A DNA stretch of 61,396 nt, counting the filler. It is 7 parts of 7 records of this genome, joined end to end, with 100 filler letters (N's around TTAATTAATTAA, not from the genome) between each part and the next. Parts side by side here need not be neighbours in the genome. Positions count along the whole stretch, not along the records: positions 55,388 to 61,396 come from SRR31156797_18614; 6 more parts are not named here. One strand, written 5' to 3'. The notes under the pieces were generated by a model. That model had not been told where the DNA came from, did not search any database, and saw nothing but the letters and a program-made list of their open reading frames with translations. A program made the translations under genes and the position numbers. The first letter of the stretch is position 1. Each line of letters opens with the position of its first letter. Positions 10,034-61,396 of the stretch are shown piece by piece.

Positions 10034-10133
10034 NNNNNNNNNNNNNNNNNNNNNNNNNNNNNNNNNNNNNNNNNNNNTTAATTAATTAANNNNNNNNNNN
10101 NNNNNNNNNNNNNNNNNNNNNNNNNNNNNNNNN
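10034..10133. other. Artificial contig linker
   Basis: 44 N + TTAATTAATTAA (stops in all six frames) + 44 N; identical at six sites. Confidence 0.97.
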
Positions 10134-19543: not shown

Positions 19544-19643
19544 NNNNNNNNNNNNNNNNNNNNNNNNNNNNNNNNNNNNNNNNNNNNTTAATTAATTAAN
19601 NNNNNNNNNNNNNNNNNNNNNNNNNNNNNNNNNNNNNNNNNNN
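19544..19643. other. Artificial contig linker
   Basis: 44 N + TTAATTAATTAA + 44 N. Confidence 0.97.
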
Positions 19644-24961: not shown

Positions 24962-25061
24962 NNNNNNNNNNNNNNNNNNNNNNNNNNNNNNNNNNNNNNN
25001 NNNNNTTAATTAATTAANNNNNNNNNNNNNNNNNNNNNNNNNNNNNNNNNNNNNNNNNNNN
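24962..25061. other. Artificial contig linker
   Basis: 44 N + TTAATTAATTAA + 44 N; abrupt GC change across it. Confidence 0.97.
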
Positions 25062-36006: not shown

Positions 36007-36106
36007 NNNNNNNNNNNNNNNNNNNNNNNNNNNNNNNNNNNNNNNNNNNNTTAATTAATTAANNNNNNNNNNNNNNNNNNNNNNNNNNNNNNNNNNNNNN
36101 NNNNNN
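36007..36106. other. Artificial contig linker
   Basis: 44 N + TTAATTAATTAA + 44 N. Confidence 0.97.
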
Positions 36107-42043: not shown

Positions 42044-42143
42044 NNNNNNNNNNNNNNNNNNNNNNNNNNNNNNNNNNNNNNNNNNNNTTAATTAATTAAN
42101 NNNNNNNNNNNNNNNNNNNNNNNNNNNNNNNNNNNNNNNNNNN
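42044..42143. other. Artificial contig linker
   Basis: 44 N + TTAATTAATTAA + 44 N. Confidence 0.97.
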
Positions 42144-46664: not shown

Positions 46665-48200
46665 CTATTTCAGCTGTACTAAAACAACCGATTTCGATGG
46701 TAGCTCAACGGTAAGTTTTCCATTTTTAGGTTTTGCTACTTCAAATTCTTTTATCGATACCTTTTCCTCTTTCCCAAAATCATTAAAGTCTGTCATGTTT
46801 TCCGAAGTAACAATTGTTGCTCCTGTAACTTTTAAATCAGCACCCAAAGTGCAATCTACTGTTATTGCTTTATTTGGATTTGCATTGGTTAAGGTAATAC
46901 TAACCAATCCACCTTTTTTAGAAGCCGATGCAGTTACTGCCGGAATTGATTTTCCGTCAAATTCGTATTTTTCGGTTTCAATTTCCATCGGAACAAGTGT
47001 GGCATCCTGATGAACATTGTACATTTTAAAAACATGGTAGGTAGGTGTTTTAATCATTTGAGCACCTTTTGTCATAATTACAGATTGTAACACGTTAACA
47101 ATCTGGGCAATGTTTGCCATGCTTATACGATCGGCATGCTTATTAAAAATATTCAGGTTAATACCGGCAACTAAAGCATCACGTAAAGTATTTTGTTGCT
47201 GAAGAAAACCATCTTTAGTACCCGGTAGCTTGTCGTACCATGTTCCCCATTCGTCAACAATCAGTTTCACTTTCCCTTCCGGATCATATTTGTCCATAAT
47301 TTTCAGGTGATCCTCGATATAATCCTCAATAAACATGGTGTTGTATATGGTTTTAAACCACATTTCTTCGTTAAAATCAACCGACGATCCTTTGTCACTC
47401 CAGTTACCTGTAGGTAAGGTATAGTAGTGTAACGATACACCCTGAGTTAAATGCGTTTTACCTTTTAACCCGGCCATAATTTTTTCGGTCCAGTTTGTAT
47501 CGTCTCCTGAGGGACCACAAATTACACGTTGCAAATCGTTGCCTTTTACAAAACAGGCATAGTTTCGATAAACATTTGCATAGTATTCAGGTGTCATTTC
47601 ACCACCACATCCCCAGTTTTCGTTTCCAATTCCCCAGAATTTTACATCCCAGGGATCTTCACGACCATTTTCTTTTCTTAATTCTGTCATTGGGCTTTCG
47701 TTACTCGAAGTTACGTATTCCACCCATTCGGCTGCCTCTTGCACAGTGCCCGAACCTACATTGATACTCAAATAGGGTTGGGTGCCGATCAACTCACAAA
47801 AATTTAAAAATTCGTGTGTCCCAAAACTATTATCTTCTGTTACACCACCCCAGTGCACATTTACAATGGAGGGACGATCTTCTTTCGGACCAATACCATC
47901 TTTCCAGTGGTAAGTGTCGGCAAAACATCCGCCAGGCCAACGCAATACAGGAACTTTTAGTTCTTTAAAGGCTTCAACCACATCGGTACGGTATCCATCG
48001 ACGTTCGGAATCTCAGATTCTTCACCAACATAAATACCTTCGTAAATACAAGTTCCAAGATGTTCGGAAAAATGACCATAAATCTCTTTGCTGATTTTAG
48101 ATTTGGCCTGATTGGTGTGTAAAGTGATAGTACTTTGACCGAAAGATGCAAAATATGCGACGCTGAATAACGAAGCAACGATTAGTTTTATTTTTAGCAT
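46665..48200 (-). CDS. GH51 alpha-L-arabinofuranosidase
   Basis: [51 protein letters not shown]. Confidence 0.93.
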
Positions 48201-48275
48201 GATTATATAGAAATTAAAAGTTATGTATACTCTTTATCAATTATTACGACGTTTAATTGTTGAATTAAGGCAATG

Positions 48276-48283
48276 CAAAGTTA
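48276..48283 (-). promoter_or_regulatory. Bacteroidota sigma-A -7 promoter element
   Basis: Minus strand TAACTTTG fits TAnnTTTG, about 75 bp upstream of GH51. Confidence 0.6.
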
Positions 48284-48460
48284 TAAAATGTAGATTTTAT
48301 ATTGTTTGTTGAGAGAAAAAAAAGTTTTGATCTTTAGTTAGTTCTTAATAATTATTGATATTATGATTGTAAGAATTAATATAAAAGTGAAATTTACTTT
48401 TATGTTTTCTCTATTGTCTAATTGACTTTTCTATCTTAGCATTACTAAACTAACAGCTAA

Positions 48461-48784
48461 GTGGAAGAACTAAATTTATGGAGAAGAATTAACGCAAGAG
48501 ACGTAATTGCTCTTCAAAAACTTCAGAGAAGGCATTTTCAAATTATAAATTCATTTGCTTTAAAGTCTGTCCAAGACAGGGTTTATGTGGAAAATCTGGT
48601 TTCACGTTGTTTTATAAAACTATCAGAAAACCTTGTAAATATCAAAATCATTGTCTTTGTAAGATCATATTTCTACCAGATGTGGAGAAATTGGATTATT
48701 GATAATAATTATCGCAATAAATACAGTAAAAGCTCAAAAGTGCAGTGTTGGCTGTGTTCAAATCGAATTGTTGAAATCACATAA
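48461..48784 (+). pseudogene. Decayed Bacteroidota ECF sigma factor (region 2 only)
   Basis: LWRRINARDVIALQKL..SFALKSVQD..VENLVSRCFIKLSEN..VRSYFYQMWRNWIID resembles ECF region 2 with key residues eroded; no region 4. Confidence 0.6.
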
Positions 48785-48829
48785 TTTTTATTTTTTCGGG
48801 TTGATTAAATAAACAAAAAAATTAATGAC

Positions 48830-49891
48830 ATGGTAAAGTATATTATATTTTCGATTTTATTGGTTTTTCTATATGCTTGTACACATCAGAATCCAATGAA
48901 AGTTCCCTCTGAAAAAGACATGAAAGCCTACCTCCTGGTGTATTTTAAAGACAGTGATCATAGTTTGCACATGGCGTTAAGCAACGATGGTTATGCTTTT
49001 ACCGATGTTAATAAGGGACTTCCTGTAATTTCGGGCGATACAATTGCAAGCCAAAAAGGAATTCGCGATCCACACATTATGCGTGGAGCCGATAATATGT
49101 TTTACATCGCTATGACCGATCTTCATATTTATGCCCAACAAGCCGGGTACAGAAAAACTGAATGGGAGCGTCCGCGTAAAGAATATGGTTGGGGAAATAA
49201 TAAAGGTTTTGTTTTGATGAAGTCTCCGGACCTTATAAATTGGACACATACAACGGTTGCCATCGACCAGTTTTTTGAAGGTTACGACAGTATTGGCTGT
49301 GCCTGGGCTCCTCAAACCATTTGGGATGAAAAAGTGGGGAAACCCATGATTTATTATTCAATGCGATTTAAAAATGGTAAAACTAGGTTGTACTACAACT
49401 ATACAAATGTTGAGTTTACCCAACCTGAAAGCAAACCCGAGTTGTTGTTTCAATATCCGGTTGATAGCTCGTATATTGATGCTGATATCACAAAAATCGG
49501 AGATAAATTTCATATGTTTTATGTGGCCCACGATGAAACACCAGGAATAAAACAAGCTGTTTCTGAACAAATTAATAAAGGTTACGAATACGATCCTTTA
49601 TGGTACGACTCCGAAAAAGTAAAATGTGAGGCACCTAATGTGTGGAAACGAATTGGGGAGGACAAGTGGGTGTTGATGTACGATATTTATGGTATCCAGC
49701 CGCACAACTTTGGTTTTCGGGAAACCACGAATTTTAACAATTTTACCGATCTGGGCCGGTTTAACGAAGGGCCAATGAAAGCGACTAATTTTACCATTCC
49801 CAAACACGGTGCGGTAATTCATCTTACCCAAAAGGAGGCAGAAAAGCTTAGTACACATTGGGGAATGGAAATGGAGTTTGACAAATTGTAA
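48830..49891 (+). CDS. GH43 family glycoside hydrolase lipoprotein
   Basis: Lipobox LYAC; YLLVYF, GIRDPHI, SPDLINW, AWAPQ, YIDAD, CEAP, PKHG. Confidence 0.85.
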   Translation: MVKYIIFSILLVFLYACTHQNPMKVPSEKDMKAYLLVYFKDSDHSLHMALSNDGYAFTDVNKGLPVISGDTIASQKGIRDPHIMRGADNMFYIAMTDLHIYAQQAGYRKTEWERPRKEYGWGNNKGFVLMKSPDLINWTHTTVAIDQFFEGYDSIGCAWAPQTIWDEKVGKPMIYYSMRFKNGKTRLYYNYTNVEFTQPESKPELLFQYPVDSSYIDADITKIGDKFHMFYVAHDETPGIKQAVSEQINKGYEYDPLWYDSEKVKCEAPNVWKRIGEDKWVLMYDIYGIQPHNFGFRETTNFNNFTDLGRFNEGPMKATNFTIPKHGAVIHLTQKEAEKLSTHWGMEMEFDKL

Positions 49892-49937
49892 TTCAGAAAT
49901 TAGTTAGAGAAAATATCATTCTATTATTAATATTATC

Positions 49938-51554
49938 ATGTATAAATCAACTTTACTTTTACTAATTGTTTTGGGCTTATTGTCGTGTGGGCAGCCCAAA
50001 AAAGAAAAAATGCAAACCGGACAATTCGAGCCAACATGGGAATCGTTAAAACAGTACGAAATACCCGAGTGGTTTAACGATGCCAAATTCGGAATATGGG
50101 CACACTGGGGGCCACAATGTCAGCCCGAGGCAGGAGACTGGTATGCAAGGCATATGTACAACCAGGAGCACTGGCAGTACAAACACCATGTTGCAAATTA
50201 TGGTCATCCTTCCGAGTTTGGTTTTAAAGATGTGATAAACGACTGGAAAGCAGAAAAGTGGGATCCTGAAAAACTGGTGGCGCTTTACAAACGCGCAGGT
50301 GCCAAATACTTTTTTGCCATGGGGAACCACCACGATAACCTTGATATGTGGAACAGCAAATACCAGGAATGGAACTCGGTAGATGTTGGGCCTAAAAAAG
50401 ACATTCTTGCCGGTTGGGCAAAGGCTGCCAAAAATAACGACTTACCTTTTGGTATTAGCATTCACTCGGCTCATGCCTGGCGCTGGTACGAAACATCTCA
50501 AATGTCGGATAAAGAAGGCGATAATGCAGGTATACCTTACGATGGGAAATTAACCAAAGCTGACGGAAAAGGAAAATGGTGGGAAGGTCTGGATCCGCAA
50601 AAACTGTATGTTCAGAACCATCTACTTAGTAAAGAGAGTGAAACATTGCATTCAATTCATGGTCAATGGGGATGGGAAAATGGAGCTGTTACACCTTCAG
50701 AAGAATATTGTTCAAATTTCTATAACCGGACGGTAGATATGATCAACCAATTCAATCCGGATTTGATTTATTTTGATGATACTGCCTTGCCCTTATGGCC
50801 AATAAGCAGTGTAGGATTAGACATTGCAGCCCATTATTACAATACAAACATGCAACACCACAATGGTAACTTGGAAGCCGTTCTGTTTGGAAAAATTCTT
50901 AGCGATGAACAAAAAGAATGTTTGGTTTGGGATGTTGAGCGTGGTGCACCGGATAAAATACAGGAGAAACCATGGCAGTCGTGCACCTGTATTGGTGGGT
51001 GGCATTACGACAGAGGCGTATATAACAGAGATGGTTATAAATCCGCAAAAACGGTAATTCAGATTTTGGTAGATATTGTGAGTAAAAATGGCAACCTGCT
51101 TCTTAACGTACCTGTACGCGGCGATGGATCAATTGATGAAAAAGAACTAAAAGTAGTTGAAGAGATTACGAAATGGATGGACGTGAACAGTGAGTGCATT
51201 TACGAAACCCGCCCGTGGAAAATCTATGGTGAAGGACCTAAAGCCGAGAGTGCCAATCCGATTAATGCACAGGGATTTAATGAGGGGAAAGGCGATCCGT
51301 ATTCTTCTAAAGATATTCGATTTACAAAAAAAGGTGATGTCGTTTATGCTGTTGTAATGGATTGGGCTGATAAGGATAAAGAATTAACCATCAAAGCATT
51401 GGCCGAAGGATCAGCATACACAAATAAAAATATTACCAATATCGAACTTTTAGGCTATGGCAAAATTGAATATCAGCGAAACAGTGACGGAGTTTTTATT
51501 ACTTTACCCGAAGATGTTGATAAAGGAATGCCGGTGGTATTGAAAGTGAGTTAA
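49938..51554 (+). CDS. GH29 alpha-L-fucosidase lipoprotein
   Basis: PTWESL..PEWFNDAKFGIWAHWG, HHDN, IYFD, DIVSKNGNLLLN, IYETRPW. Confidence 0.9.
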   Translation: MYKSTLLLLIVLGLLSCGQPKKEKMQTGQFEPTWESLKQYEIPEWFNDAKFGIWAHWGPQCQPEAGDWYARHMYNQEHWQYKHHVANYGHPSEFGFKDVINDWKAEKWDPEKLVALYKRAGAKYFFAMGNHHDNLDMWNSKYQEWNSVDVGPKKDILAGWAKAAKNNDLPFGISIHSAHAWRWYETSQMSDKEGDNAGIPYDGKLTKADGKGKWWEGLDPQKLYVQNHLLSKESETLHSIHGQWGWENGAVTPSEEYCSNFYNRTVDMINQFNPDLIYFDDTALPLWPISSVGLDIAAHYYNTNMQHHNGNLEAVLFGKILSDEQKECLVWDVERGAPDKIQEKPWQSCTCIGGWHYDRGVYNRDGYKSAKTVIQILVDIVSKNGNLLLNVPVRGDGSIDEKELKVVEEITKWMDVNSECIYETRPWKIYGEGPKAESANPINAQGFNEGKGDPYSSKDIRFTKKGDVVYAVVMDWADKDKELTIKALAEGSAYTNKNITNIELLGYGKIEYQRNSDGVFITLPEDVDKGMPVVLKVS

Positions 51555-51575
51555 AATACAATGATAACTATTTAA

Positions 51576-51607
51576 CCCTCCTGATTTACTTTACAGGGGG
51601 GATTTTT
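51576..51607 (+). terminator. Probable intrinsic terminator
   Basis: CCCTCCTG-N10-CAGGGGGG followed by ATTTTT after GH29. Confidence 0.55.
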
Positions 51608-51669
51608 CATAGTAATTTGTCCATAAAATAAGTAAAATTGTGTCTTCTTAAAAAAGTAAAGCCTAAAAT

Positions 51670-53994
51670 ATGAACGTAACGAGATATGGGAAAATATTGT
51701 TTTTAGCTTTTTGTTTAATGTGTTGTTTGTCATGTCGCAAAAATTCTCCTCAATCCAATTCATATTCTTTTTCTGAACTTGTAGAACCTACTGTTGATGC
51801 TGTAAACTCTCGCTGGTTTTTCTTCTCATCGGCCTGCCGGCCCTTTGGTATGGTAAGCCTAAGTCCTGATACAGAAACAAACGGAGCATGGGGGAGCGGA
51901 TATCGCTACAATACAGATACGGTCCGTGGTTTTAACCATGTGCACGCCTGGCAACTTTCGGGACCATCAGTAATGCCCGTAGTTAATGAGTCAGGCATAA
52001 ACATTTTTACCGATTTTGATTCCCCTTTTAGTCATAAATCCGAAATTATTACTCCCGGCTATCACAAACTTACACTTGAGCGATACAACATTGTAAGCGA
52101 GTTGACCTCAACCAAAAGAGTTGGTTTCCATCGATACACTTTTTTTGAAAATAAAGGCACAGCTGTACTTTTTAACCTGAATGGCAAGCAGGGGCCAAGT
52201 AAGATGAAAGATGGATTAATTCATCAAATTAACGATTACGAAATATCGGGAAAAGTCGTTAATCACCCAACCATCAGAAGACCTAAAGACTGTACCATAT
52301 TTTTTTCGGTACTATTCGACTCGCCAATTAAAGAAGTGTTGGAAGATAAAAACACCGGCAACTATCTGGTTTCTTTTGAAGAACTTAAAAGCAAGCAGCT
52401 AAAAATGAAATTAGCTATCTCTTATACTTCAATTGAAAATGCAAAATTGAACCTTGAATCGGAATTACCCAGCTGGGATTTTGATAATGTAATAAATAAT
52501 TCAAAAGAAGAATGGAATTCGATGCTTTCGCGGATTGAAATTAAAGGAGGAACTGAAGAGCAACAAAAAAGATTTTATACCGACCTGTGGCATGCTTTAC
52601 AGGGGCGAAGAACCATAAGTGATATAAATGGGGCTTATCCCGATAATACTGGAGAAGAGTTCAGGATCGGGCAATTGCCTGTTGATGAGAACAACAAATC
52701 CCTTTTCAATCATTATAATTCCGATGCGTTTTGGGGAGCCCAATGGACAATCAATACGCTTTGGGGATTGGTTTATCCTGAATTAATGGAAGAGTTTGTT
52801 TACTCGTTGATGCAATATTATAAAGACGGTGGTCTGATTCCTCGTGGGCCATCAGGCGGTAATTATACCTATGTGATGACTGGTGCTTCGGCTACCCCAT
52901 TTATTGTTAGTGCCATTCAGAAAGGAATTGTAAAAGATAATTTAGAGGAAATTTATCAGGCACTTAAAAAGAACCATTTACCGGGAGGTATAATGGAAAA
53001 GGCTGGCTACGAGCATAAAACAAACCTGGGAGGTGGATTTAAATATTATTTGGAACAAGGATATGTTCCTTATCCCATTCCTGAAGGAAAATTTGGATAC
53101 CATCAGGATGGCGCCAGTCTTACTATGGAGTACGCTTATCAGGACTGGACACTGGCACAACTTGCCGAAAAGTTAGGGCATAAGGAGGATGCAAAATATT
53201 TTGCTGAAAGAAGTAATAATTATGCGAATACTTTTGATGAGAAAAGCGGTTGGATGAGACCGAAAGATGCTGATGGCAAATGGAAGAGTGATTTTGATCC
53301 CTACCAGTTGGAGCATGGTTTTAATGAATCAAATGGAGCTCAATCGACCTGGTTTGTACCACATGATTTAGAAGGCCTGGCAAAACTTATGGGAGGCAAA
53401 AATAGAGCTGCAGAAAAGTTAAACCAGTCGTTTGAAAAGGCACAGGAAATGGGATTTACAGCAGGTACCTCGCACGACCGGGAGTTACATCCTGAGTTTA
53501 GTCGAATTCCCATAAATTATGGTAACCAACCTTCCATTCAAACCGCATATATTTTTAATTATTTCGATAGACCATGGCTAACACAACTTTGGTCGCGAAA
53601 AGTAACAGAATCTGTTTACAAGGGTTTAAGTACCGATAGAGGATACAATGGCGATGAGGATCAGGGCTTGATGGGATCCCTGGCCATTTTAATGAAAATG
53701 GGATTGTTTTCAATGAAAGGGGGGTGTAGTATAAATCCGGTATTGGAACTCGGTAGTCCGCTTTTCGATCAAGTAACAATTCATTTAAATCCGGAATATT
53801 ACAAAGGGAAATCAATAATTATTAAGGCAGAAGGGAATTCATCAGAGAACCGTTATATTCAATCAGCAACGTTAAATGGCAATTCATTAAATAGCTGGAA
53901 GATAGAACAAAGTGAGTTAACTCAGGGAGCAGAATTAAAATTATCAATGGGGAGAAATCCAAATAAGAAATGGGGTAATAATGAGAGCAAATAA
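51670..53994 (+). CDS. GH92 glycoside hydrolase (alpha-mannosidase family)
   Basis: PFGMVSLSPDT, SGYRY, RVGFHRYTF, FYTDLWH, TMEYAYQDW, NESN, YGNQP, GDEDQG. Confidence 0.9.
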   Translation: MNVTRYGKILFLAFCLMCCLSCRKNSPQSNSYSFSELVEPTVDAVNSRWFFFSSACRPFGMVSLSPDTETNGAWGSGYRYNTDTVRGFNHVHAWQLSGPSVMPVVNESGINIFTDFDSPFSHKSEIITPGYHKLTLERYNIVSELTSTKRVGFHRYTFFENKGTAVLFNLNGKQGPSKMKDGLIHQINDYEISGKVVNHPTIRRPKDCTIFFSVLFDSPIKEVLEDKNTGNYLVSFEELKSKQLKMKLAISYTSIENAKLNLESELPSWDFDNVINNSKEEWNSMLSRIEIKGGTEEQQKRFYTDLWHALQGRRTISDINGAYPDNTGEEFRIGQLPVDENNKSLFNHYNSDAFWGAQWTINTLWGLVYPELMEEFVYSLMQYYKDGGLIPRGPSGGNYTYVMTGASATPFIVSAIQKGIVKDNLEEIYQALKKNHLPGGIMEKAGYEHKTNLGGGFKYYLEQGYVPYPIPEGKFGYHQDGASLTMEYAYQDWTLAQLAEKLGHKEDAKYFAERSNNYANTFDEKSGWMRPKDADGKWKSDFDPYQLEHGFNESNGAQSTWFVPHDLEGLAKLMGGKNRAAEKLNQSFEKAQEMGFTAGTSHDRELHPEFSRIPINYGNQPSIQTAYIFNYFDRPWLTQLWSRKVTESVYKGLSTDRGYNGDEDQGLMGSLAILMKMGLFSMKGGCSINPVLELGSPLFDQVTIHLNPEYYKGKSIIIKAEGNSSENRYIQSATLNGNSLNSWKIEQSELTQGAELKLSMGRNPNKKWGNNESK

Positions 53995-53995
53995 G

Positions 53996-54250
53996 GTGCC
54001 AGAAGATCTTTTAGCCGTCAGGTATCTGTTTGTTCTGGCCAATTCTGATTGTGGTCATTCTGATGGATTTCAGTACGACATTGTTGATGTTAGCTAACAG
54101 GTGCTGGCAAACTATGCTTTGCCGGTTCAACAACAAATGGCAATGGATTACCAATCAAAAGGATTTTCCTGTTGAATCGAGGCTGCATTCAATCAAAATT
54201 GATGCTGAACTTTATCTATGATACCGAAAACGGATTGAGCCTTTAACTAA
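53996..54250 (+). pseudogene. Relic of a GH89 alpha-N-acetylglucosaminidase
   Basis: Hand translation: PEDLLAVRYLFV..SDGFQYDIVDVS*QVLANYALPVQQQM (TAA at 54095-97 inside the YDLVDVxRQVLAN motif). A second frame gives QKDFPVES..SIKIDAELYL*YRKRI, which resembles the extreme C-terminus. Confidence 0.65.
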
Positions 54251-54282
54251 AACTTTACCCGTAATTGATTACAACTACTAAT

Positions 54283-55287
54283 ATGGAAGAACGAATCAGA
54301 AAAAAGCCGGAACGCTTTCTTTCGCTTGATGTTTTTAGAGGATTGACAATCGTGTTGATGATTGTTGTGAATACCCCTGGAACCGGAGCTAAGATTTACG
54401 ATTATTTGATACATGCACAATGGTTTGGATTTACCCTGGCCGACCTGGTTTTTCCATCCTTTCTTTTTGCTGTTGGTAATTCCCTGAGCTTTTCAATGAG
54501 GAAATTAAGACAAGCACCAGCAGCCGATGTTTGGAAAAAAATAGTAAAACGAACCATAATCATCTTTTTATTGGGTTACCTTATGTATTGGTTTCCGTTT
54601 TTTAAAATTGTTGATGGTTCGTTACTACTAAAACCGATTGCAGAGACCAGAATCATGGGGGTATTGCAACGTATTGCGCTTTGCTACTTCTTTGCATCCA
54701 TTATACTTTACTACCTCAATGAAAAGGCAGCGATCATTATTTCAGCAGCATTATTGTTGGGTTACTGGGGAGTTTTATATGTTTTTGGCGAGCCTGGTGC
54801 CTGGCTGGAAATGGCCACCAATGCAGCGTCAAAGTTTGATTTGGCGGTATTGGGATACGGCCACATTTATAAAAAAGATGCGATACCATTCGATCCTGAG
54901 GGTTTGTTGAGTACACTCCCGGCTATCGTTAATGTAATTGGTGGTTACCTTGCAGGTACCTTTATTCAGAAAAAAGGGAAGTCTTTTGAGGGTATATCAA
55001 AGTTGTTAATTGCCGGTTTCGTTTTGGTTTCATTGGCATTATGGTGGGATTTAATTTTCCCCATTTCAAAGAAACTCTGGACAAGCCCTTTTGTGCTTTA
55101 CACCGTTGGTTTGGATCTTTCAATAATGGCCATTCTTATTTATATTATTGAATTAAAAAAGATAAACTATGGTGTTAAGTTTTTCGATGTTTTCGGAAAG
55201 AATCCTTTGTTTATCTATCTCTTTTCTGAGCTCTTTTTTATAAGCCTTCGTTTAATTCCTGTGGGGGGTGGACTTGATGCCTGGGAA
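54283..55287 (+). CDS. Heparan-alpha-glucosaminide N-acetyltransferase-like (HGSNAT/NagX) membrane protein, 3'-truncated
   Basis: RFLSLDVFRGLTI..MIVVN, HAQWFGFTLADLVFPSFLF, GVLQRIAL, FDPEGLLS, PISKKLWT. Confidence 0.88.
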
Positions 55288-55387
55288 NNNNNNNNNNNNN
55301 NNNNNNNNNNNNNNNNNNNNNNNNNNNNNNNTTAATTAATTAANNNNNNNNNNNNNNNNNNNNNNNNNNNNNNNNNNNNNNNNNNNN
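55288..55387. other. Artificial contig linker
   Basis: 44 N + TTAATTAATTAA + 44 N. Confidence 0.97.
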
Positions 55388-55641
55388 TGCGCAAACTGGG
55401 TTTTCAGGCATTGCTTCCCGACGAACTTCATTCGCCAATTATTACAACCTTTATTTCCCCGGACCATCCTGAATATAACTTTAACCGGTTTTACAAGGAA
55501 TTAAAATCTCGGGAATTTGTAATATATCCGGGAAAAGTGACCAACTACCAATGCTTCCGGATTGGCAATATTGGCGAGGTTTACCCCGAAGATATAGAAA
55601 AGCTGCTTAAAGCTATCGATGAATCAAAGTATTGGCTTTAA
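55388..55641 (+). CDS. phnW: 2-aminoethylphosphonate--pyruvate transaminase, C-terminal part
   Basis: [39 protein letters not shown], characteristic of the PhnW C-terminus. Confidence 0.88.
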
Positions 55642-55652
55642 ATTTTAAAAAC

Positions 55653-57002
55653 ATGTCAATCAATTTCAGAACGGAAGGAGATATTAATTTTTCACCTGAA
55701 CGGGAAAAATGGAATCAATCAATTTGTGATGAACAAACAATTCAACTTCTGAATGAAGACTCCAAATACTTCTTCCACCAATATATGTCAACTCCATGTT
55801 TAGACGTGCTGAAAGAATGTGAGGGTAGCAAAATTACTACAATAACCGGGAAAAAGATCCTCGATTTTCATGGCAATAGCGTACACCAGGTTGGATTTAG
55901 CAATCCATTTGTTATTAACCAAATTAAAAAGCAACTTGAAAGCTTATCTTTTTCTACCCGCCGATTTACCAATGCTCCGGCAATAGAACTGGCGAAAAAG
56001 TTAATTAGTAAAATGCCCAACGAAAACTACCGGGTACTTTTTGCTCCCGGAGGTACCTCAGCTGTAGGAATGGCATTAAAACTGGCTCGTGCTGTAACCG
56101 GGAACCACAAAGTTGTTTCACTTTGGGATTCATTTCATGGTGCTTCACTTGACTCCATATCGGCCGGTGGAGAAGCCAGTTTCCGTCAACATATGGGACC
56201 TATGATGCCTGGTGTTTTACACATTCCTCCGCCAACCACTTATCGCGGTATTTTTGGAGATACCGATGAAGACCACCTAAAATACGCCAACTACCTTGAG
56301 TACATTATTGAGAAAGAAGGAGGTGTAGGTGCCTTCATTTCAGAAACAATTAGAAATACCGATGTACAAGTACCTACAAAAGCCTATTGGAAGAGAATTC
56401 GTGAAATTTGCAATAAACATAATATTATTCTTATCCTGGATGAAATATCTATTGGAATGGGACGACCAGGTAAACAATTTGCTTTTGAGCATTACGGTAT
56501 CGAACCAGACATAGTTTGTCTTGGCAAAGGTCTGGGGGGTGGAATTTTTCCAATGGCTGCAATGATTGGCCGCTCGGAATTTAATATTGCACCCGAAATT
56601 TCATTAGGACATTACACCCACGAAAAAAATCCGGTTGGATGCACAGCAGCACTGGCAACTATCGAATACATCGAAAAAAGAAGATTACTTGAAAAAGTAC
56701 AGAAAGACAGCCTCTTTATTCAAGCCAGACTCAACGAGTTTAAACAAAAATATAATCTGATTGGACATGTTCGTGGAATTGGTTTTTTATGGGGCATTGA
56801 ACTGGTTAAAGACAGAACCACCAAAGCAAAAGCCAATGATATTGCAGAAAAAATCATGTACGAATGCCTGCAAAACAGATTAAGCTTTAAGGTTTCGCAA
56901 GGAAATGTACTAATGCTTGCCCCTGCTTTAACCATAACTGAAACCGAACTAGAAGAAGCATTAGACGTGCTTGAGAATGCCATACAGAAGTTTAATCTAT
57001 AA
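55653..57002 (+). CDS. pbfA: Class III aminotransferase-fold enzyme, PbfA-like (R)-1-hydroxy-2-aminoethylphosphonate ammonia-lyase
   Basis: RTEGDIN..HQYMSTPCLD, DFHGNSVHQVG, WDSFHGASLD, LILDEI, LGKGLGGG (PLP Lys), GHYTHEKNP, LSFKVSQGN; directly after phnW. Confidence 0.75.
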   Translation: MSINFRTEGDINFSPEREKWNQSICDEQTIQLLNEDSKYFFHQYMSTPCLDVLKECEGSKITTITGKKILDFHGNSVHQVGFSNPFVINQIKKQLESLSFSTRRFTNAPAIELAKKLISKMPNENYRVLFAPGGTSAVGMALKLARAVTGNHKVVSLWDSFHGASLDSISAGGEASFRQHMGPMMPGVLHIPPPTTYRGIFGDTDEDHLKYANYLEYIIEKEGGVGAFISETIRNTDVQVPTKAYWKRIREICNKHNIILILDEISIGMGRPGKQFAFEHYGIEPDIVCLGKGLGGGIFPMAAMIGRSEFNIAPEISLGHYTHEKNPVGCTAALATIEYIEKRRLLEKVQKDSLFIQARLNEFKQKYNLIGHVRGIGFLWGIELVKDRTTKAKANDIAEKIMYECLQNRLSFKVSQGNVLMLAPALTITETELEEALDVLENAIQKFNL

Positions 57003-57086
57003 ATCACTTTTTGGCATGTTATATAAAACTCAGGAAACATTTAGTTTACATAAGCAGTGCATCTTTCGGTTATAAAATTAAGGGAA

Positions 57087-58019
57087 ATGAAACGAAGAAC
57101 ATTTTTAGGAACAACACTCGCTACAGGGTTATCTCTCAACTCCATATGGTCTTTTGCAAGTACATCTTCACCAAAAGAAAAACTTTTTAGAATTGTGCAC
57201 ATTACCGACATGCACATTTCTGAAAATCCAAAGATTGAAAAAGGCATTAGCACAATGTTAAGCAAAATAAAATCCTTAAAAGAACAACCAGATTTTATAC
57301 TTAATACCGGAGACAATATTGGTGATGCTTTAAAACACACCAAAGAAGAAGTAGAAAGCCAATGGCAAGCCTGGCAAAAATACTTCAAACAGGACCTGGG
57401 ATATCCTTTACGCTCGTGTATTGGAAACCATGATGTTTGGGGCTGGGGAATCAATGATAAAGAACTGGTTAAAGATCCGCAATATGGGAAAAACTGGGCT
57501 CTGTCGATGTTAAACCTGGAGCATCGGTATTATTCATTCGAACACAAAGGCTGGAAATTTATTTGCCTCGATAGCCCAATGTTTGCAGGAGTAAAAAAAG
57601 CATATACTGCCCAACTCGATGATGAACAATACAAATGGCTGGAAAATGAACTTAAAAAAACCAATCCGGAAATACCTGTTTGTATTGTTTCGCATATACC
57701 AATTTTATCTGCTTCCGTATTTTACGATGGAGACAACGCAAAAGATGGAGACTGGAAGATACCAGGAGCCTGGATGCATATCGACTCAAAAAAAATAAAA
57801 TCACTTTTTTACAAACATAAAAACGTAAAAGCTGCACTTAGCGGCCACGTCCATTTAGCTGATAAAACAGAATATCTTGGTGTCCACTATCATTGCAACG
57901 GTGCAGCTTGTGGTGGTTGGTGGAAAGGAAATTACCAGGAATTTGGCCCGGCTTACGCAATAGTTGACTTTTTCTCCGACGGAACTGTAAACACCGAGCT
58001 TGTACCCTATAAATTCTAG
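57087..58019 (+). CDS. Tat-exported calcineurin-like metallophosphoesterase
   Basis: MKRRTFLG Tat signal; TDMH, TGD, GNHD, SHIP, SGHVH. Confidence 0.88.
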   Translation: MKRRTFLGTTLATGLSLNSIWSFASTSSPKEKLFRIVHITDMHISENPKIEKGISTMLSKIKSLKEQPDFILNTGDNIGDALKHTKEEVESQWQAWQKYFKQDLGYPLRSCIGNHDVWGWGINDKELVKDPQYGKNWALSMLNLEHRYYSFEHKGWKFICLDSPMFAGVKKAYTAQLDDEQYKWLENELKKTNPEIPVCIVSHIPILSASVFYDGDNAKDGDWKIPGAWMHIDSKKIKSLFYKHKNVKAALSGHVHLADKTEYLGVHYHCNGAACGGWWKGNYQEFGPAYAIVDFFSDGTVNTELVPYKF

Positions 58020-58218
58020 TTTATCTAAAATTTAAGACAGTATGTGCAAAACATAATCTTCACCATCTCCATTTTTTTTGGGGCATTGTAATTAAAAATC
58101 ATAACCCACTGATTCAGTAATGATTGACTTTCAGCGAAAGCCAAAACAGGAATAATATGTACTAAAAACAGGTATTTGAAAACTTTAATAATAGTTCTTA
58201 ATCAAAATTAATTCATTC

Positions 58219-61200
58219 ATGAAACACTTTATTTTTACAATTGGATTTTTACTTTTGGGCACATTCCTTTTTGCCCAGAAAATTGAAATCACCGGTAAAG
58301 TCTCTGAAAAAAACGGAGCCTACTTACCAGGTGTAACCATTATGGAAAAAGGAACATCAAATGGAACAGTATCCGATTCGGAAGGACATTTTCGTATTGA
58401 GGTAAATGAGAATGCAACCTTACATTTCTCATTTATTGGCTATGCAGCAAAAGAAGTTGCTATTGGTGATAAACAGCAAATTAATGTAATGCTTGAAGAA
58501 GATCTTCAGGAAATTGACGAAGTTATTGTAACTGCATTGGGTATTAGCCAGGAGAAAAAGGCACTAGGTTATGCCACCCAGGAAGTTAGCTCAGAGAAAA
58601 TAACCAGTGTAAATGCACCCAACATGGGAAACATGTTAAGCGGGCAGGTTGCTGGCTTAACAGTTAACACCCGAACAGGGATTTTTCAAAGTCCTGAGTT
58701 TGAACTTCGTGGGAAAGAACCGCTTATTGTTGTTGACGAGATTCCGGTTGAAACCGACTTTTTTGATGTTTCATCTGCCGATATCGAGAATATTGTGGTG
58801 TTAAAAGGGCCAACTGCTTCTTCGCTTTATGGTTCACGCGGAAGAAATGGTGCGATATTAATAACGACAAAAAAAGCCAAAAAGGATGGACTGAGCATCT
58901 CTGTCTCAAACAGCACTATGGTATCAGCGGGTTACACGGTTTTTCCGGAAACTCAAACAGAATACGGTAACGGATCAAACGGATTATATGAATTCTGGGA
59001 TGGAAAAGACGGTGGTATCTCTGACGGTGATATGATTTGGGGTCCAAAATTTTCTGACAACCTGGAGATTGCCCAGTGGAACAGTCCTATACTCGACAAT
59101 GTAACCGGAGAAACCATTGAATGGTGGGGAGATGTTTCAGGAACACAATACGACAACAAAGCTCGCTATTCGAGGGTTCCTATTGCCTGGGAATATCACA
59201 ATAACCTAAAAGATTTTATGCAAACTGCGGTTATTTCAACCACAAATTTTTCAGTTGCCAGTAAAAACAAAAAATCGTCGACACGTTTTTCCGGCTTCTA
59301 CCAGTCTGAAAAAGGTAGGGTTCCAAATACAAAGTTAAAAACCGGGGGATTAACATTTAATGGTTTATATAATTTAACCGACAACCTTACCCTGGACGCT
59401 AAATTGTCGTACAACAAAGTTTATTCGCCAAACTATCCGCGCTACGGTTATGGCCCCAAAAACCACATGTACACAATACTCGTTTGGATGGGTGATGATG
59501 TTAATGGTAAAGACCTTAAAGAACACATGTATGTTCCGGGCCAAGAAGGCTACCGCCAGGCAAACTTCAACTACGCCTGGTATAACAACGTTTATTTTGC
59601 CGCTTACGAGTTAAATCAGAAATACGACCAAAATACCACAAACGGACAGGTAAAACTTAAATGGGATATTACCAACGATTTAAGTATTCAGGGAAGGGCT
59701 TCAGCTGTTTTAAAACACACCTTTAAAGATATGGAAAGTCCTAAATCGTACATGAATTACAGCGATTCGAGAGAAGGTGATTATAAAACATGGAATGTTG
59801 ATCAGATTAATATCGACAACGATATCTTGTTGTCGTATAAAAAAGATTTTTCTGAAAAATTTGGTTTAAGTGCCAATATGGGGGCATCAATGTTTTACAA
59901 AAAATACCAAACCGAATACAGTGCCACAGACGGTCTTGTGGTTCCATGGGTTTACAACCTTAGTAACTCATCGGGAAATGTAACTGCATCAAACGGATTA
60001 ACAGAAAAAGAAACCCGGAGTGTTTTCGGCACCCTTTCGGTGGATTTTATAGATGCTTTTTTCCTTACACTAACTGGCCGTAACGATTGGTCATCGGCTT
60101 TGCCCGAATCAAATAACTCCTATTTCTACCCTTCTGTTTCGTTAAGTACGCTTGTTTCTAACCTTGTACAACTCCCAAAAGCGTTCGATTACCTGAAAGT
60201 TTACGGTTCATGGGCAGAAGTATCAAGCGACCTTTCCGCTTATCAAATATCATCGTATTACCAAAATGAAGGGATGTACAACGGAAATTCAAAGGTTAGT
60301 TATCCTGAAGTTATTGTCAATCCGAATATAAAACCTGAAAAATCAACATCTTTTGAATTAGGAATTTCTTCCGTATTCCTTAAAAACAGACTTGGAGTTG
60401 ATCTTACATATTACAATATTGTTGATGAAAATCAAATTATTAACCTGGATATCTCTGAGGCCAGTGGTTTTGAATCGAGAAAAGTAAATGGAAACGAATA
60501 TACCACCAATGGTTTTGAGATAATGTTAAAGGCCAATCCCGTTCGTAAAAATAATTTCAAATGGGACCTTGGTTTAAACTGGACTACCAGTGTTAAAAAG
60601 ATTACAAAAATATATGGTGGGGCCGACAAATACGATTACCATTCGCTTAACGAACGAACAGACAATTACTATGCAACAGTATGGCAGAAAAGTGCAGATG
60701 GTAGACTAATAGTTGATGAAAACGGAATGCCTATAAAAGACGCCTATAAACGAAATGTTGGGCATAAGGATCCGGATTGGAGGTTTGGCTTACAAAACAG
60801 TTTTAAAATTAACAACCTTACCATCGGGCTTGATTTCGACGGCGTAGTTGGCGGGTTAATGTGGTCGAAAACAGTACAAAAAATGTGGTGGGGCGGCAAA
60901 CATCCCAACTCTACCGAATACAGGGATGCAGAATATGCTGCAGGAGCTCCAGTTTATGTTCCCGATGCAGTTACTGTTGTAAGTGGCGATGTATCGTATG
61001 ATACCGACGGGAATATAATTTCTGACACACGCGAATACGCAGAAAACACAACAAAGGTGAGCTGGCAAACATGGTGTCAGAACTATCCTTATCGCGCTGT
61101 TGTTACCCAAGACGAAAATGAAAAATTTGCCAATATATTTGACCGAAGTTATATAAAACTACGAAAGCTATCGTTTAACTACGACCTTACCGACCTCATT

Positions 61201-61359
61201 AAAATAAATGCGTTTAAAAAAGTTGAAGCTACAGCCTACGGTTATAACCTGTTAATTCTGAAAAAGGCAGATATTATTGACCCTGATTTTGGGAACGATG
61301 ATGACTTGCAAGATCCGTCAACAAGATGGATTGGCCTGGGCTTAAATGTAACTTTCTAA
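58219..61359 (+). CDS. susC: SusC/RagA family TonB-dependent outer-membrane transporter
   Basis: N-terminal CarboxypepD-like domain (LPGVTI..GTSNGTVSD), IENIVVLKGPTASSLYGSRGRNGAILITTK, RNDWSS, FYPSVS, IKPEKS, C-terminal Phe. An ATG at 61390 probably begins the partner susD. Confidence 0.93.
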   Translation: MKHFIFTIGFLLLGTFLFAQKIEITGKVSEKNGAYLPGVTIMEKGTSNGTVSDSEGHFRIEVNENATLHFSFIGYAAKEVAIGDKQQINVMLEEDLQEIDEVIVTALGISQEKKALGYATQEVSSEKITSVNAPNMGNMLSGQVAGLTVNTRTGIFQSPEFELRGKEPLIVVDEIPVETDFFDVSSADIENIVVLKGPTASSLYGSRGRNGAILITTKKAKKDGLSISVSNSTMVSAGYTVFPETQTEYGNGSNGLYEFWDGKDGGISDGDMIWGPKFSDNLEIAQWNSPILDNVTGETIEWWGDVSGTQYDNKARYSRVPIAWEYHNNLKDFMQTAVISTTNFSVASKNKKSSTRFSGFYQSEKGRVPNTKLKTGGLTFNGLYNLTDNLTLDAKLSYNKVYSPNYPRYGYGPKNHMYTILVWMGDDVNGKDLKEHMYVPGQEGYRQANFNYAWYNNVYFAAYELNQKYDQNTTNGQVKLKWDITNDLSIQGRASAVLKHTFKDMESPKSYMNYSDSREGDYKTWNVDQINIDNDILLSYKKDFSEKFGLSANMGASMFYKKYQTEYSATDGLVVPWVYNLSNSSGNVTASNGLTEKETRSVFGTLSVDFIDAFFLTLTGRNDWSSALPESNNSYFYPSVSLSTLVSNLVQLPKAFDYLKVYGSWAEVSSDLSAYQISSYYQNEGMYNGNSKVSYPEVIVNPNIKPEKSTSFELGISSVFLKNRLGVDLTYYNIVDENQIINLDISEASGFESRKVNGNEYTTNGFEIMLKANPVRKNNFKWDLGLNWTTSVKKITKIYGGADKYDYHSLNERTDNYYATVWQKSADGRLIVDENGMPIKDAYKRNVGHKDPDWRFGLQNSFKINNLTIGLDFDGVVGGLMWSKTVQKMWWGGKHPNSTEYRDAEYAAGAPVYVPDAVTVVSGDVSYDTDGNIISDTREYAENTTKVSWQTWCQNYPYRAVVTQDENEKFANIFDRSYIKLRKLSFNYDLTDLIKINAFKKVEATAYGYNLLILKKADIIDPDFGNDDDLQDPSTRWIGLGLNVTF

Positions 61360-61396
61360 TAGTTGTTGAATTAATAAAGATTACAAAAAATGAAAA

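Follow-up and report, generated by a model that had tools for sequence, protein, structure and literature searches.

Two kinds of described system come closest to the locus reported here, which occupies the last contig (SRR31156797_18614) of a 61,396-nucleotide stretch of joined bacterial contigs, hereafter the window, and places the aminophosphonate genes phnW and pbfA beside an exported metallophosphoesterase (MPE) and a SusC-type transporter. The first are the Pus loci. Six low-phosphate-induced PusCD forms are described in Flavobacterium (Lidbury et al. 2021, PMC8115612), and the preprint of Connolly et al. 2026 (10.64898/2026.09.03.749221) reports that growth on phosphatidylinositol and glycerophosphoinositol needs PusCD1/2 and that pus1 holds a calcineurin-like phosphodiesterase. 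Section 19 of the former (PMC8115612) and the Discussion of the latter (10.64898/2026.09.03.749221) mention PusCD-like pairs that co-localise with phosphonate-degrading (aminophosphonate) genes. The second is the PhnW-PhnX (phosphonatase) pathway with PbfA (Zangelmi et al. 2021, PMC8154272; FEBS J 2025, PMC12366243), for which both papers note pbfA with phnX outside Proteobacteria. The words TonB and SusC are absent from the main texts of these two papers, and a literature search on phnW with TonB-dependent in Bacteroidetes returned nothing on topic, judged by title.

The window consists of seven concatenated contigs from a fragmented assembly, separated by six identical linkers (10034-10133, 19544-19643, 24962-25061, 36007-36106, 42044-42143 and 55288-55387). 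As the contigs are joined end to end, gene neighbourhoods across the linker points are not real. The locus lies within positions 55388-61396 (6,009 bp), a contig that is cut at both ends and carries all of its genes on the plus strand, with intergenic gaps of 11, 84, 199 and 30 nt between phnW, pbfA, the MPE gene, susC and the start of susD. The sequence-only reading of this stretch had listed these same genes in one orientation; pbfA, MPE, the full SusC, the start of the next gene and the co-orientation are all real, and its phnW is reduced to an 83-codon 3' fragment. The features are as follows.

55288..55387, no strand: linker of 44 N, TTAATTAATTAA and 44 N, read directly; the contig that bears the finding begins at 55388.
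55390..55641, plus strand: phnW (2-aminoethylphosphonate:pyruvate transaminase), last 83 codons and TAA stop, by TIGR02326.
55632/55653..57002, plus strand: pbfA-family class-III pyridoxal phosphate (PLP) enzyme, by NF049939, PRK06082 and PF00202.
57057/57087..58019, plus strand: exported calcineurin-type MPE, by PF00149; predicted periplasmic phosphodiesterase.
58020..58218, plus strand: MPE-SusC intergenic region of 199 nt, with a hairpin and conserved blocks.
58219..61359, plus strand: complete SusC/RagA-type TonB-dependent transporter of 1046 amino acids (aa), by TIGR04056, TIGR04057 and Pfam.
61390..61396, plus strand: ATGAAAA, two codons and one base of a predicted susD, by alignment to susD starts; the window ends here.

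The gene order phnW-pbfA-MPE-SusC was found in 0 of the 55 loci that we examined (35 PbfA loci and 20 MPE loci), and its two halves occur in one and the same chromosomal slot of different relatives. In Draconibacterium sp. (L001), the slot consists of leucyl-tRNA synthetase (LeuRS), a TonB-dependent receptor (TBDR) of 798 aa, a module of alcohol dehydrogenase, PhnX-like hydrolase, helix-turn-helix (HTH) regulator, PhnW and PbfA, and then an endonuclease-III-like protein, a 187-aa protein and a TBDR of 872 aa. In the relative L067 it holds LeuRS (90% identity), three other genes, a TBDR of 813 aa (63%), a module of MPE, SusC, SusD and a PHP-domain hydrolase, and then the endonuclease-III-like protein (70%), a 158-aa protein (46%) and a TBDR (62%). 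By sequence and synteny, the window contig, PhnW-PbfA-MPE-SusC-(SusD), is the junction of these two modules. Either the composite is ancestral and each relative has lost one half, or the halves were joined in the lineage of the window; under either origin, the two modules are separable. Beside the module in the relatives that lack phosphonate (phn) genes, a second metallophosphoesterase (L067:6056-6907, 283 aa, no signal peptide) precedes MPE-SusCD. The 813-aa TBDR lies before MPE-SusCD at L067:6961-9402, and its counterpart adjoins the phn module in L001.

We lean towards reading the contig as the middle of a composite phosphorus-scavenging locus, in which a Pus-type module for the import and hydrolysis of organophosphorus esters is coupled to the catabolism of 2-aminoethylphosphonate (AEP) and its 1-hydroxy derivative (HAEP). 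The first module would comprise MPE, SusC and SusD, together with a predicted downstream Sec-exported PHP-domain hydrolase. SusCD would bring small phospho(no)esters, for instance lipid head groups or oligosaccharides decorated with such esters, over the outer membrane, and the binuclear metallophosphodiesterase, which resembles GpdQ and Rv0805 and is predicted to be exported by twin-arginine translocation (Tat), would cleave the P-O ester bond in the periplasm. The predicted PHP hydrolase may then strip phosphate from monoester products. AEP and (R)-HAEP would not be cleaved in the periplasm, and an inner-membrane carrier would import them (in relatives a DUF5690 or MFS protein; none is visible here). 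The second module would be made up of phnW and pbfA with a predicted upstream HTH-cupin regulator, a PhnX-like hydrolase and an alcohol dehydrogenase. In the cytoplasm, PhnW, acting on AEP, and PbfA, acting on (R)-HAEP, would yield phosphonoacetaldehyde, of which a PhnX-type hydrolase would cleave the C-P bond. A general ester-import module, once joined to phn genes and perhaps co-regulated with them, would open the phosphonate products of ester cleavage to the cell.

Calcineurin-like enzymes carry the metal-ligand motifs DxH, GD, GNH[D/E], H and GHxH, and a twin-arginine motif follows the pattern S/T-R-R-x-F-L-K, with a hydrophobic stretch and a cleavage site after it. The MPE gene likely starts at the ATG at 57087, which gives a product of 310 aa. 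This product passes PF00149 (57.4 bits, cut-off 21.5) and stays far below the cut-off of every NCBIfam equivalog. Its N-terminus, MKRRTFLGTTLATGLSLNSIWSFA (MKRRTFLG...), holds a twin-arginine motif in a Tat-like signal with no cysteine. When aligned with 43 homologues of 44-66% identity, R3 and F6 of the RRxF motif never vary, the conservation of R4 reaches at least 90%, and the metal ligands D41, H43, D76, N114, H115, H203, H254 and H256 are invariant throughout. The N-terminal sequence and its conservation point to a genuine twin-arginine signal, and the exported Tat phosphoesterase of the sequence-only reading agrees well with this signal, with the lack of a lipobox cysteine and with the intact metal site. 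Two other identities were ruled out: CpdA/Icc (NF008359), with 39 bits against a cut-off of 225 and the conserved twin-arginine signal, and a lipoprotein esterase, by the signal without a lipobox cysteine.

As no PDB sequence matched the MPE at E<=0.01, a fold search was used. The AlphaFold2 model (predicted local distance difference test, pLDDT, 82.6; lower confidence at about residues 205-232 and 255-290) gave Rv0805 (E 1e-15, TMt 0.79) and GpdQ (E 4e-15 to 8e-15, TMt 0.70-0.72) as the best Foldseek matches, followed by purple acid phosphatases and sphingomyelinase-like phosphodiesterases. The family comprises 1,229 members at E<=1e-5, with a top identity of 66-67%, whose database names are just 'metallophosphoesterase' or 'CpdA/Icc'. 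Taken together, sequence and model lead us to read the MPE as a probably active, Tat-exported and soluble periplasmic phosphodiesterase.

The SusC protein passes both TIGR04056 (520.8 bits, cut-off 368.25) and TIGR04057 (49.4 bits, cut-off 46.2), and consists of a signal peptide, a CarboxypepD_reg-like domain, a plug and a barrel, with no STN domain. In the orthologous loci L067, L068 and L073, the susD start (ATGAAAAAA) is found 30-35 nt past the SusC stop, and the ATG at 61390 lines up with it; this synteny supports the susD that had been expected after SusC. L067 has a SusD of the PF12771 type. Among the SusDs of these loci, the four that were checked are all of the PF12771/PF12741 type, and three nearby SusDs linked to extracytoplasmic function (ECF) sigma factors belong to PF07980/PF14322. 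The spacer between MPE and SusC (58020-58218) carries a terminator-like hairpin at 58067-58083, directly after the MPE gene, and includes a ATTGACTTAC-like block. Across the window and five orthologous loci (six in all), its mean column identity is 72% and the hairpin arms are kept; the conserved spacer with its hairpin and block is thus possibly a regulatory region. A sigma-70 scan returned 11 sites against 17.5 expected, with a tool that does not cover Bacteroidota promoters. In many loci, a conserved protein of about 180 aa stands directly before the phn-linked SusC (L083:12185-12724; L075:8934-9479, minus strand; L021:3135-3677; L022:13825-14358). It belongs to no Pfam family, has a signal peptide in the two copies checked, and is absent from the MPE-SusC spacer of the window.

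The phnW fragment matches positions 281-362 of the 363 positions of TIGR02326 (115.7 bits, E 2.5e-33) and, because it is truncated by the contig start, remains far below the cut-off of 400.8 bits and does not contain the PLP-lysine region. It is 75% and 78% identical to the full-length PhnW of L001 and L011, respectively; full-length PhnW proteins score 584-590 bits. The pbfA gene could start as early as the TTG at 55632. Its likely start is the ATG at 55653, 11 nt past the phnW stop, which gives 449 aa as in the orthologues of L001 and L011 (81% and 80% identity). The product passes the equivalog model of (R)-HAEP ammonia-lyase (NF049939, 705 bits over residues 14-453, cut-off 525); it scores slightly higher, 727.5 bits, on the generic PRK06082, and 271 bits on PF00202. 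At its N-terminus there is no signal peptide and no hydrophobic signal-like stretch. No phnX or PhnX-like gene is present on the contig, nor is the phnX or phnY/phnA that the sequence-only reading expected upstream visible there; in the orthologous loci L001, L011 and L002, a PhnX-like gene (TIGR03351) stands a few genes away from phnW. No further phn genes were found by tblastn in the whole window.

In the passages of PMC8154272 consulted, no sequence signature is named that would tell a PbfA lyase and a transaminase apart. Two class-III PLP paralogues, 44-46% identical to one another, occur in some relatives, so that specificity within the PbfA family may differ. A second class-III PLP copy, about 45% identical to the PbfA of the window, is present in L011 and L005, and both copies of L011 (10001-11350 and 16316-17662, minus strand), the locus that was checked, pass the PbfA model. 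The second copies in L032-L035 are merely 28-30% identical. Such paralogous copies may differ in substrate.

We surveyed the 335 genomes of the family to which the closest genome belongs, taking MPE at E<=1e-60 and PbfA at E<=1e-100. An MPE orthologue occurs in 23 of the 335, and in 5 of the 301 genomes of an even order-level sample. Loci of 20 kb (less at contig ends) were fetched around 19 of the 23 family MPEs and around one from the order sample, 20 in all. The seven closest carry MPE (64-66% identity), SusC (74-81% identity), SusD and PHP in this order; SusD and the PHP hydrolase, which has a Sec signal, follow SusC in all seven. In eight further loci, the MPE (53-57% identity) is embedded in phn clusters of three gene orders: phnW-MPE-small protein-SusC-SusD, MPE-pbfA-small protein-SusC-SusD-phnX, and the latter with PHP between MPE and pbfA. 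The remaining five follow neither arrangement. By coordinates, pbfA directly adjoins MPE in three of the four unfetched genomes and lies on a separate contig in the fourth; phn genes thus stand within about 10 kb of MPE in 11 of the 23 family genomes (eight from fetched loci, three from coordinates). A non-STN SusC adjoins MPE in 15 of the 20 fetched loci, with SusD beside it in 14; the contig of L077 ends inside SusC. A metagenome scan with the MPE yielded 19 loci, mostly short or distant, of which L099, L105 and L107 alone are informative on context. L099, from another lineage, reads TBDR-MPE (49% identity)-HAD-MFS-PhnX-like, followed by an FAD (DAO) oxidoreductase gene on the opposite strand.

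For the other half, a PbfA scan of species-representative genomes gave 35 loci, 31 from Bacteroidota and four gammaproteobacterial. The nearest are those of Draconibacterium (81% and 76% identity) and Sunxiuqinia (80%), in which phnW-pbfA stands alongside an HTH-cupin regulator, a PhnX-like hydrolase (TIGR03351) and an alcohol dehydrogenase (TIGR03366). Many PbfA loci add a DUF5690 membrane protein, an FAD oxidoreductase, an exported metallophosphoesterase of 554-568 aa and a PHP-domain hydrolase. The exported esterases that accompany phn-SusCD loci include this 554-568 aa enzyme, the PHP protein, an NPP-type enzyme and a GDPD-like protein. Of the 31 Bacteroidota loci, 12 have SusC-SusD no more than 10 kb from pbfA, a lower bound because eight of the 31 span less than 7 kb; of the four gammaproteobacterial loci, none does. 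A linkage of pbfA to susC across Bacteroidota, for which a survey had been proposed from the sequence, is therefore present in at least 12 of 31 PbfA loci. DUF5690 (PF18943; 425-444 aa) lies directly upstream of phnW in L011:7554-8888, L021:14482-15810, L075:11699-12976 (minus strand) and L080:2535-3839, and a crude scan gives it 10-11 hydrophobic segments in L011, L021 and L080. It is a candidate inner-membrane aminophosphonate importer; a literature search on DUF5690 returned one mention, on an unrelated subject.

When the SusC of the window was compared with the SusC-like proteins of individual genomes (78-144 candidates each), its best match was the phn-linked copy in all four genomes that have one (G351, G604, G528 and G003). 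We built a SusC tree of 41 sequences, including 12 next-best paralogues from G604, G003, G351 and G447 (five genomes were searched). In it, the window forms a clade with seven phn-less orthologues (support 100), whose sister group consists of nine phn-linked SusCs, at a value of 90 in the Shimodaira-Hasegawa-like approximate likelihood ratio test (SH-aLRT), below the mark of 95. A second clade of nine phn-linked SusCs lies nearby, and three unlinked paralogues are interleaved. The sequence-only reading had named a SusC clade without phn links elsewhere as evidence against itself, and on this point it is thus not refuted. For the MPE tree we used the topology alone and discarded group statistics, as small and large loci of the same genomes form duplicate rows. 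The MPE of the window falls in a clade (SH-aLRT 99) with phn-less loci, and the neighbouring clades are phn-embedded MPEs.

Across the 335 family genomes, PbfA is present in 42, MPE in 23 and both in 13 (odds ratio 12.7, Fisher p 1.4e-7). This co-occurrence speaks for the composite locus, with a p value that overstates the case because the genomes are related and the statistic ignores relatedness. Several observations weigh against a functional coupling of the two modules. No phn genes lie within 10 kb of MPE in the seven closest MPE loci, and the five genomes with the closest MPE-SusC-SusD orthologues contain no PbfA, PhnW, PhnX, PhnX-like or PhnJ genome-wide, in a search whose queries recovered their targets in five of five genomes known to hold them. 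Within the MPE clade of the window, the topology places phn genes beside MPE in the window alone among 10 genomes. Conversely, tblastn with the window MPE gave no match at E<=1e-5 in the 35 PbfA loci, the closest (L001 and L011) included, and the five genomes closest by PbfA hold just paralogues of 27-32% identity, in G001. The 6,009-bp contig shows neither a phosphatase nor phnX nor an inner-membrane transporter. Finally, the hairpin and conserved blocks between MPE and SusC may place SusC under its own control, as a separate transcription unit.

Given the phn-less orthologue genomes, the adjacency in the window could be an accident of neighbourhood or reflect shared regulation alone. MPE-SusCD(-PHP) would then serve generic phosphodiester scavenging, of glycerophosphodiesters or nucleic-acid fragments, and phnW-pbfA would be a separate operon fed with free AEP or HAEP by another route, the two sharing at most phosphate-starvation control. 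We regard this as unlikely, although it accounts well for the occurrence of either module alone in the same slot of close relatives, for the nearest MPE-SusCD orthologues in genomes without a detected phosphonate pathway, for the hairpin and putative regulatory region between MPE and SusC, and for the action of the characterised PusCD1/2 on phosphate esters. It sits poorly with 11 of the 23 family genomes, where, across three gene orders, an MPE orthologue either stands directly between phnW and SusC or adjoins pbfA directly, with L099, where a different lineage has MPE by PhnX-like, MFS and DAO genes, with the phn-linked sister clade of the window SusC, and with a gap between pbfA and MPE of just 84 nt on the same strand.

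A locus dedicated to phosphonate esters, as the sequence-only reading proposed, would require a SusCD pair specific to the head groups of phosphonolipids or to fragments of phosphonoglycans and an MPE specialised as an AEP/HAEP esterase. GpdQ-type enzymes also accept phosphonate monoesters, several exported esterases stand alongside phn-SusCD loci, and the synteny is the same evidence that speaks for the composite scavenging locus. Nevertheless, the MPE and SusC clades of the window are otherwise phn-less and occur in genomes without PhnW, PbfA, PhnX or PhnJ, where strict phosphonate specificity would leave the module useless as a phosphorus source. As these genomes keep MPE-SusCD, the module cannot serve phosphonate use there, and its basic substrate must be phosphate esters. 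Strict dedication is therefore improbable. Of the proposed phosphonate-ester import system, the architecture of importer, exported esterase and PhnW-PbfA fits sequence and synteny, and the dedication of the MPE-SusCD module to phosphonates is not supported, in view of the seven phn-less loci.

Run X1 yields a Logan contig of 11,561 bp that matches 55389-61396 without a single difference, has an even depth of 11.3 and continues for 2,994 bp before 55389 and 2,559 bp beyond 61396, which argues against a chimeric join between pbfA and MPE; run X1 is possibly the sample of the window itself, so that the match speaks for a consistent assembly and is not independent support. An assembly artefact at this junction, by which two genomic regions of a fragmented metagenome-assembled genome had been wrongly fused, could explain why the full order occurs in 0 of 55 loci, why the best relatives of the two halves are different genomes and why the contig is merely 6 kb, but is very improbable in view of the Logan contig, of the shared slot in relatives, which predicts the join by synteny, and of analogous joins in other genera.

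A bolder proposal is one that we put forward tentatively and with more doubt than belief: the MPE family might be a periplasmic phosphonate-monoester hydrolase, whose substrates, phosphonolipid head groups or phosphonoglycan fragments, would enter through a dedicated SusCD branch and yield AEP or 1-hydroxy-AEP, and the locus of the window might be the ancestral complete form, of which the relatives keep half each. If true, the bulk of natural phosphonates, which is esterified, would become accessible to Bacteroidota. In nature, AEP occurs mostly as esters in lipids and glycans; to our knowledge, the known AEP catabolic routes begin from free AEP, the release and uptake of esterified phosphonates have been little studied, and Bacteroidota are largely without phosphonate ABC importers. 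SusCD-linked phn clusters with exported esterases suggest how Bacteroidota may release and take up such esters. The slot, occupied by the phn genes in the one relative, by esterase-SusCD in the other and by both modules in the window, furthermore offers natural controls for the handling of phosphonate esters by esterase and SusD.

The organism of the window, a marine member of the Bacteroidota, probably belongs to the Prolixibacteraceae. A 422-bp contig from run X2, a marine sediment metagenome, matches 58118-58539 with 3 differences, which hints at a close relative living in marine sediment. On the contig before the last linker, positions 46665-55287 hold a cluster for glycan degradation, with a GH51-like arabinofuranosidase, a GH32/GH43-like protein, a GH29 fucosidase, a GH92 mannosidase (the glycosidase genes span 46665-53994) and a NagX-like acetyltransferase that is cut by the contig end. 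A tie of the locus to this upstream glycosidase cluster was rejected, as the cluster sits on a different contig; with the linker at 55288-55387 between them, the GH51, GH29, GH92 and NagX genes cannot be counted as neighbours of the locus.

Compared with described systems, the locus shares with classical polysaccharide utilisation loci the SusC/SusD core for outer-membrane import. Unlike these, it has no carbohydrate-active enzymes (CAZymes) on the window contig or in the seven orthologous loci, and so falls outside the polysaccharide utilisation loci. With GpdQ, the glycerophosphodiesterase of Enterobacter aerogenes, and Rv0805, the class III phosphodiesterase of Mycobacterium tuberculosis, the MPE has in common the binuclear metallophosphoesterase fold and all metal ligands; it differs from both by an identity of 17-20%, its Tat signal and its SusCD context. 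The phosphonatase clusters with PbfA, as far as PMC8154272 and PMC12366243 describe them, have phnW and pbfA adjacent as in the window, where the linked uptake genes are a SusCD pair and an exported esterase and phnX is not visible on the contig.

The closest counterparts are the Pus loci of Flavobacterium johnsoniae and other plant-associated Bacteroidota, in which, from the descriptions in PMC8115612 and 10.64898/2026.09.03.749221, a SusCD-like pair stands by exported phosphodiesterases and not by CAZymes. The MPE, SusC and susD start of the window conform to this pattern of a SusCD-like pair with phosphoesterases or phosphonate genes. Like the locus of the window, pus1 holds a calcineurin-like phosphodiesterase. 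The organism of the window differs from the Pus hosts in order and habitat, its relatives being marine-sediment Prolixibacteraceae, and no ECF sigma/anti-sigma pair is seen here, the relatives having an HTH-cupin regulator instead. The characterised Pus ligands are, as described, inositol phosphates. That no example of the combination was known, as the sequence-only reading had stated, holds for characterised systems; the co-localisation of PusCD with phosphonate-degrading enzymes is already in print (PMC8115612; 10.64898/2026.09.03.749221). This kind of locus is thus known from comparative genomics, where PusCD is linked to phosphonates by gene neighbourhood. As the concept had been raised for the Flavobacterium Pus loci, the gain lies in a testable example and an enzyme family and not in a new principle: to the described systems, the window adds a Prolixibacteraceae member, an unstudied family of esterases with ties to phn genes, and a natural set of full and half loci.

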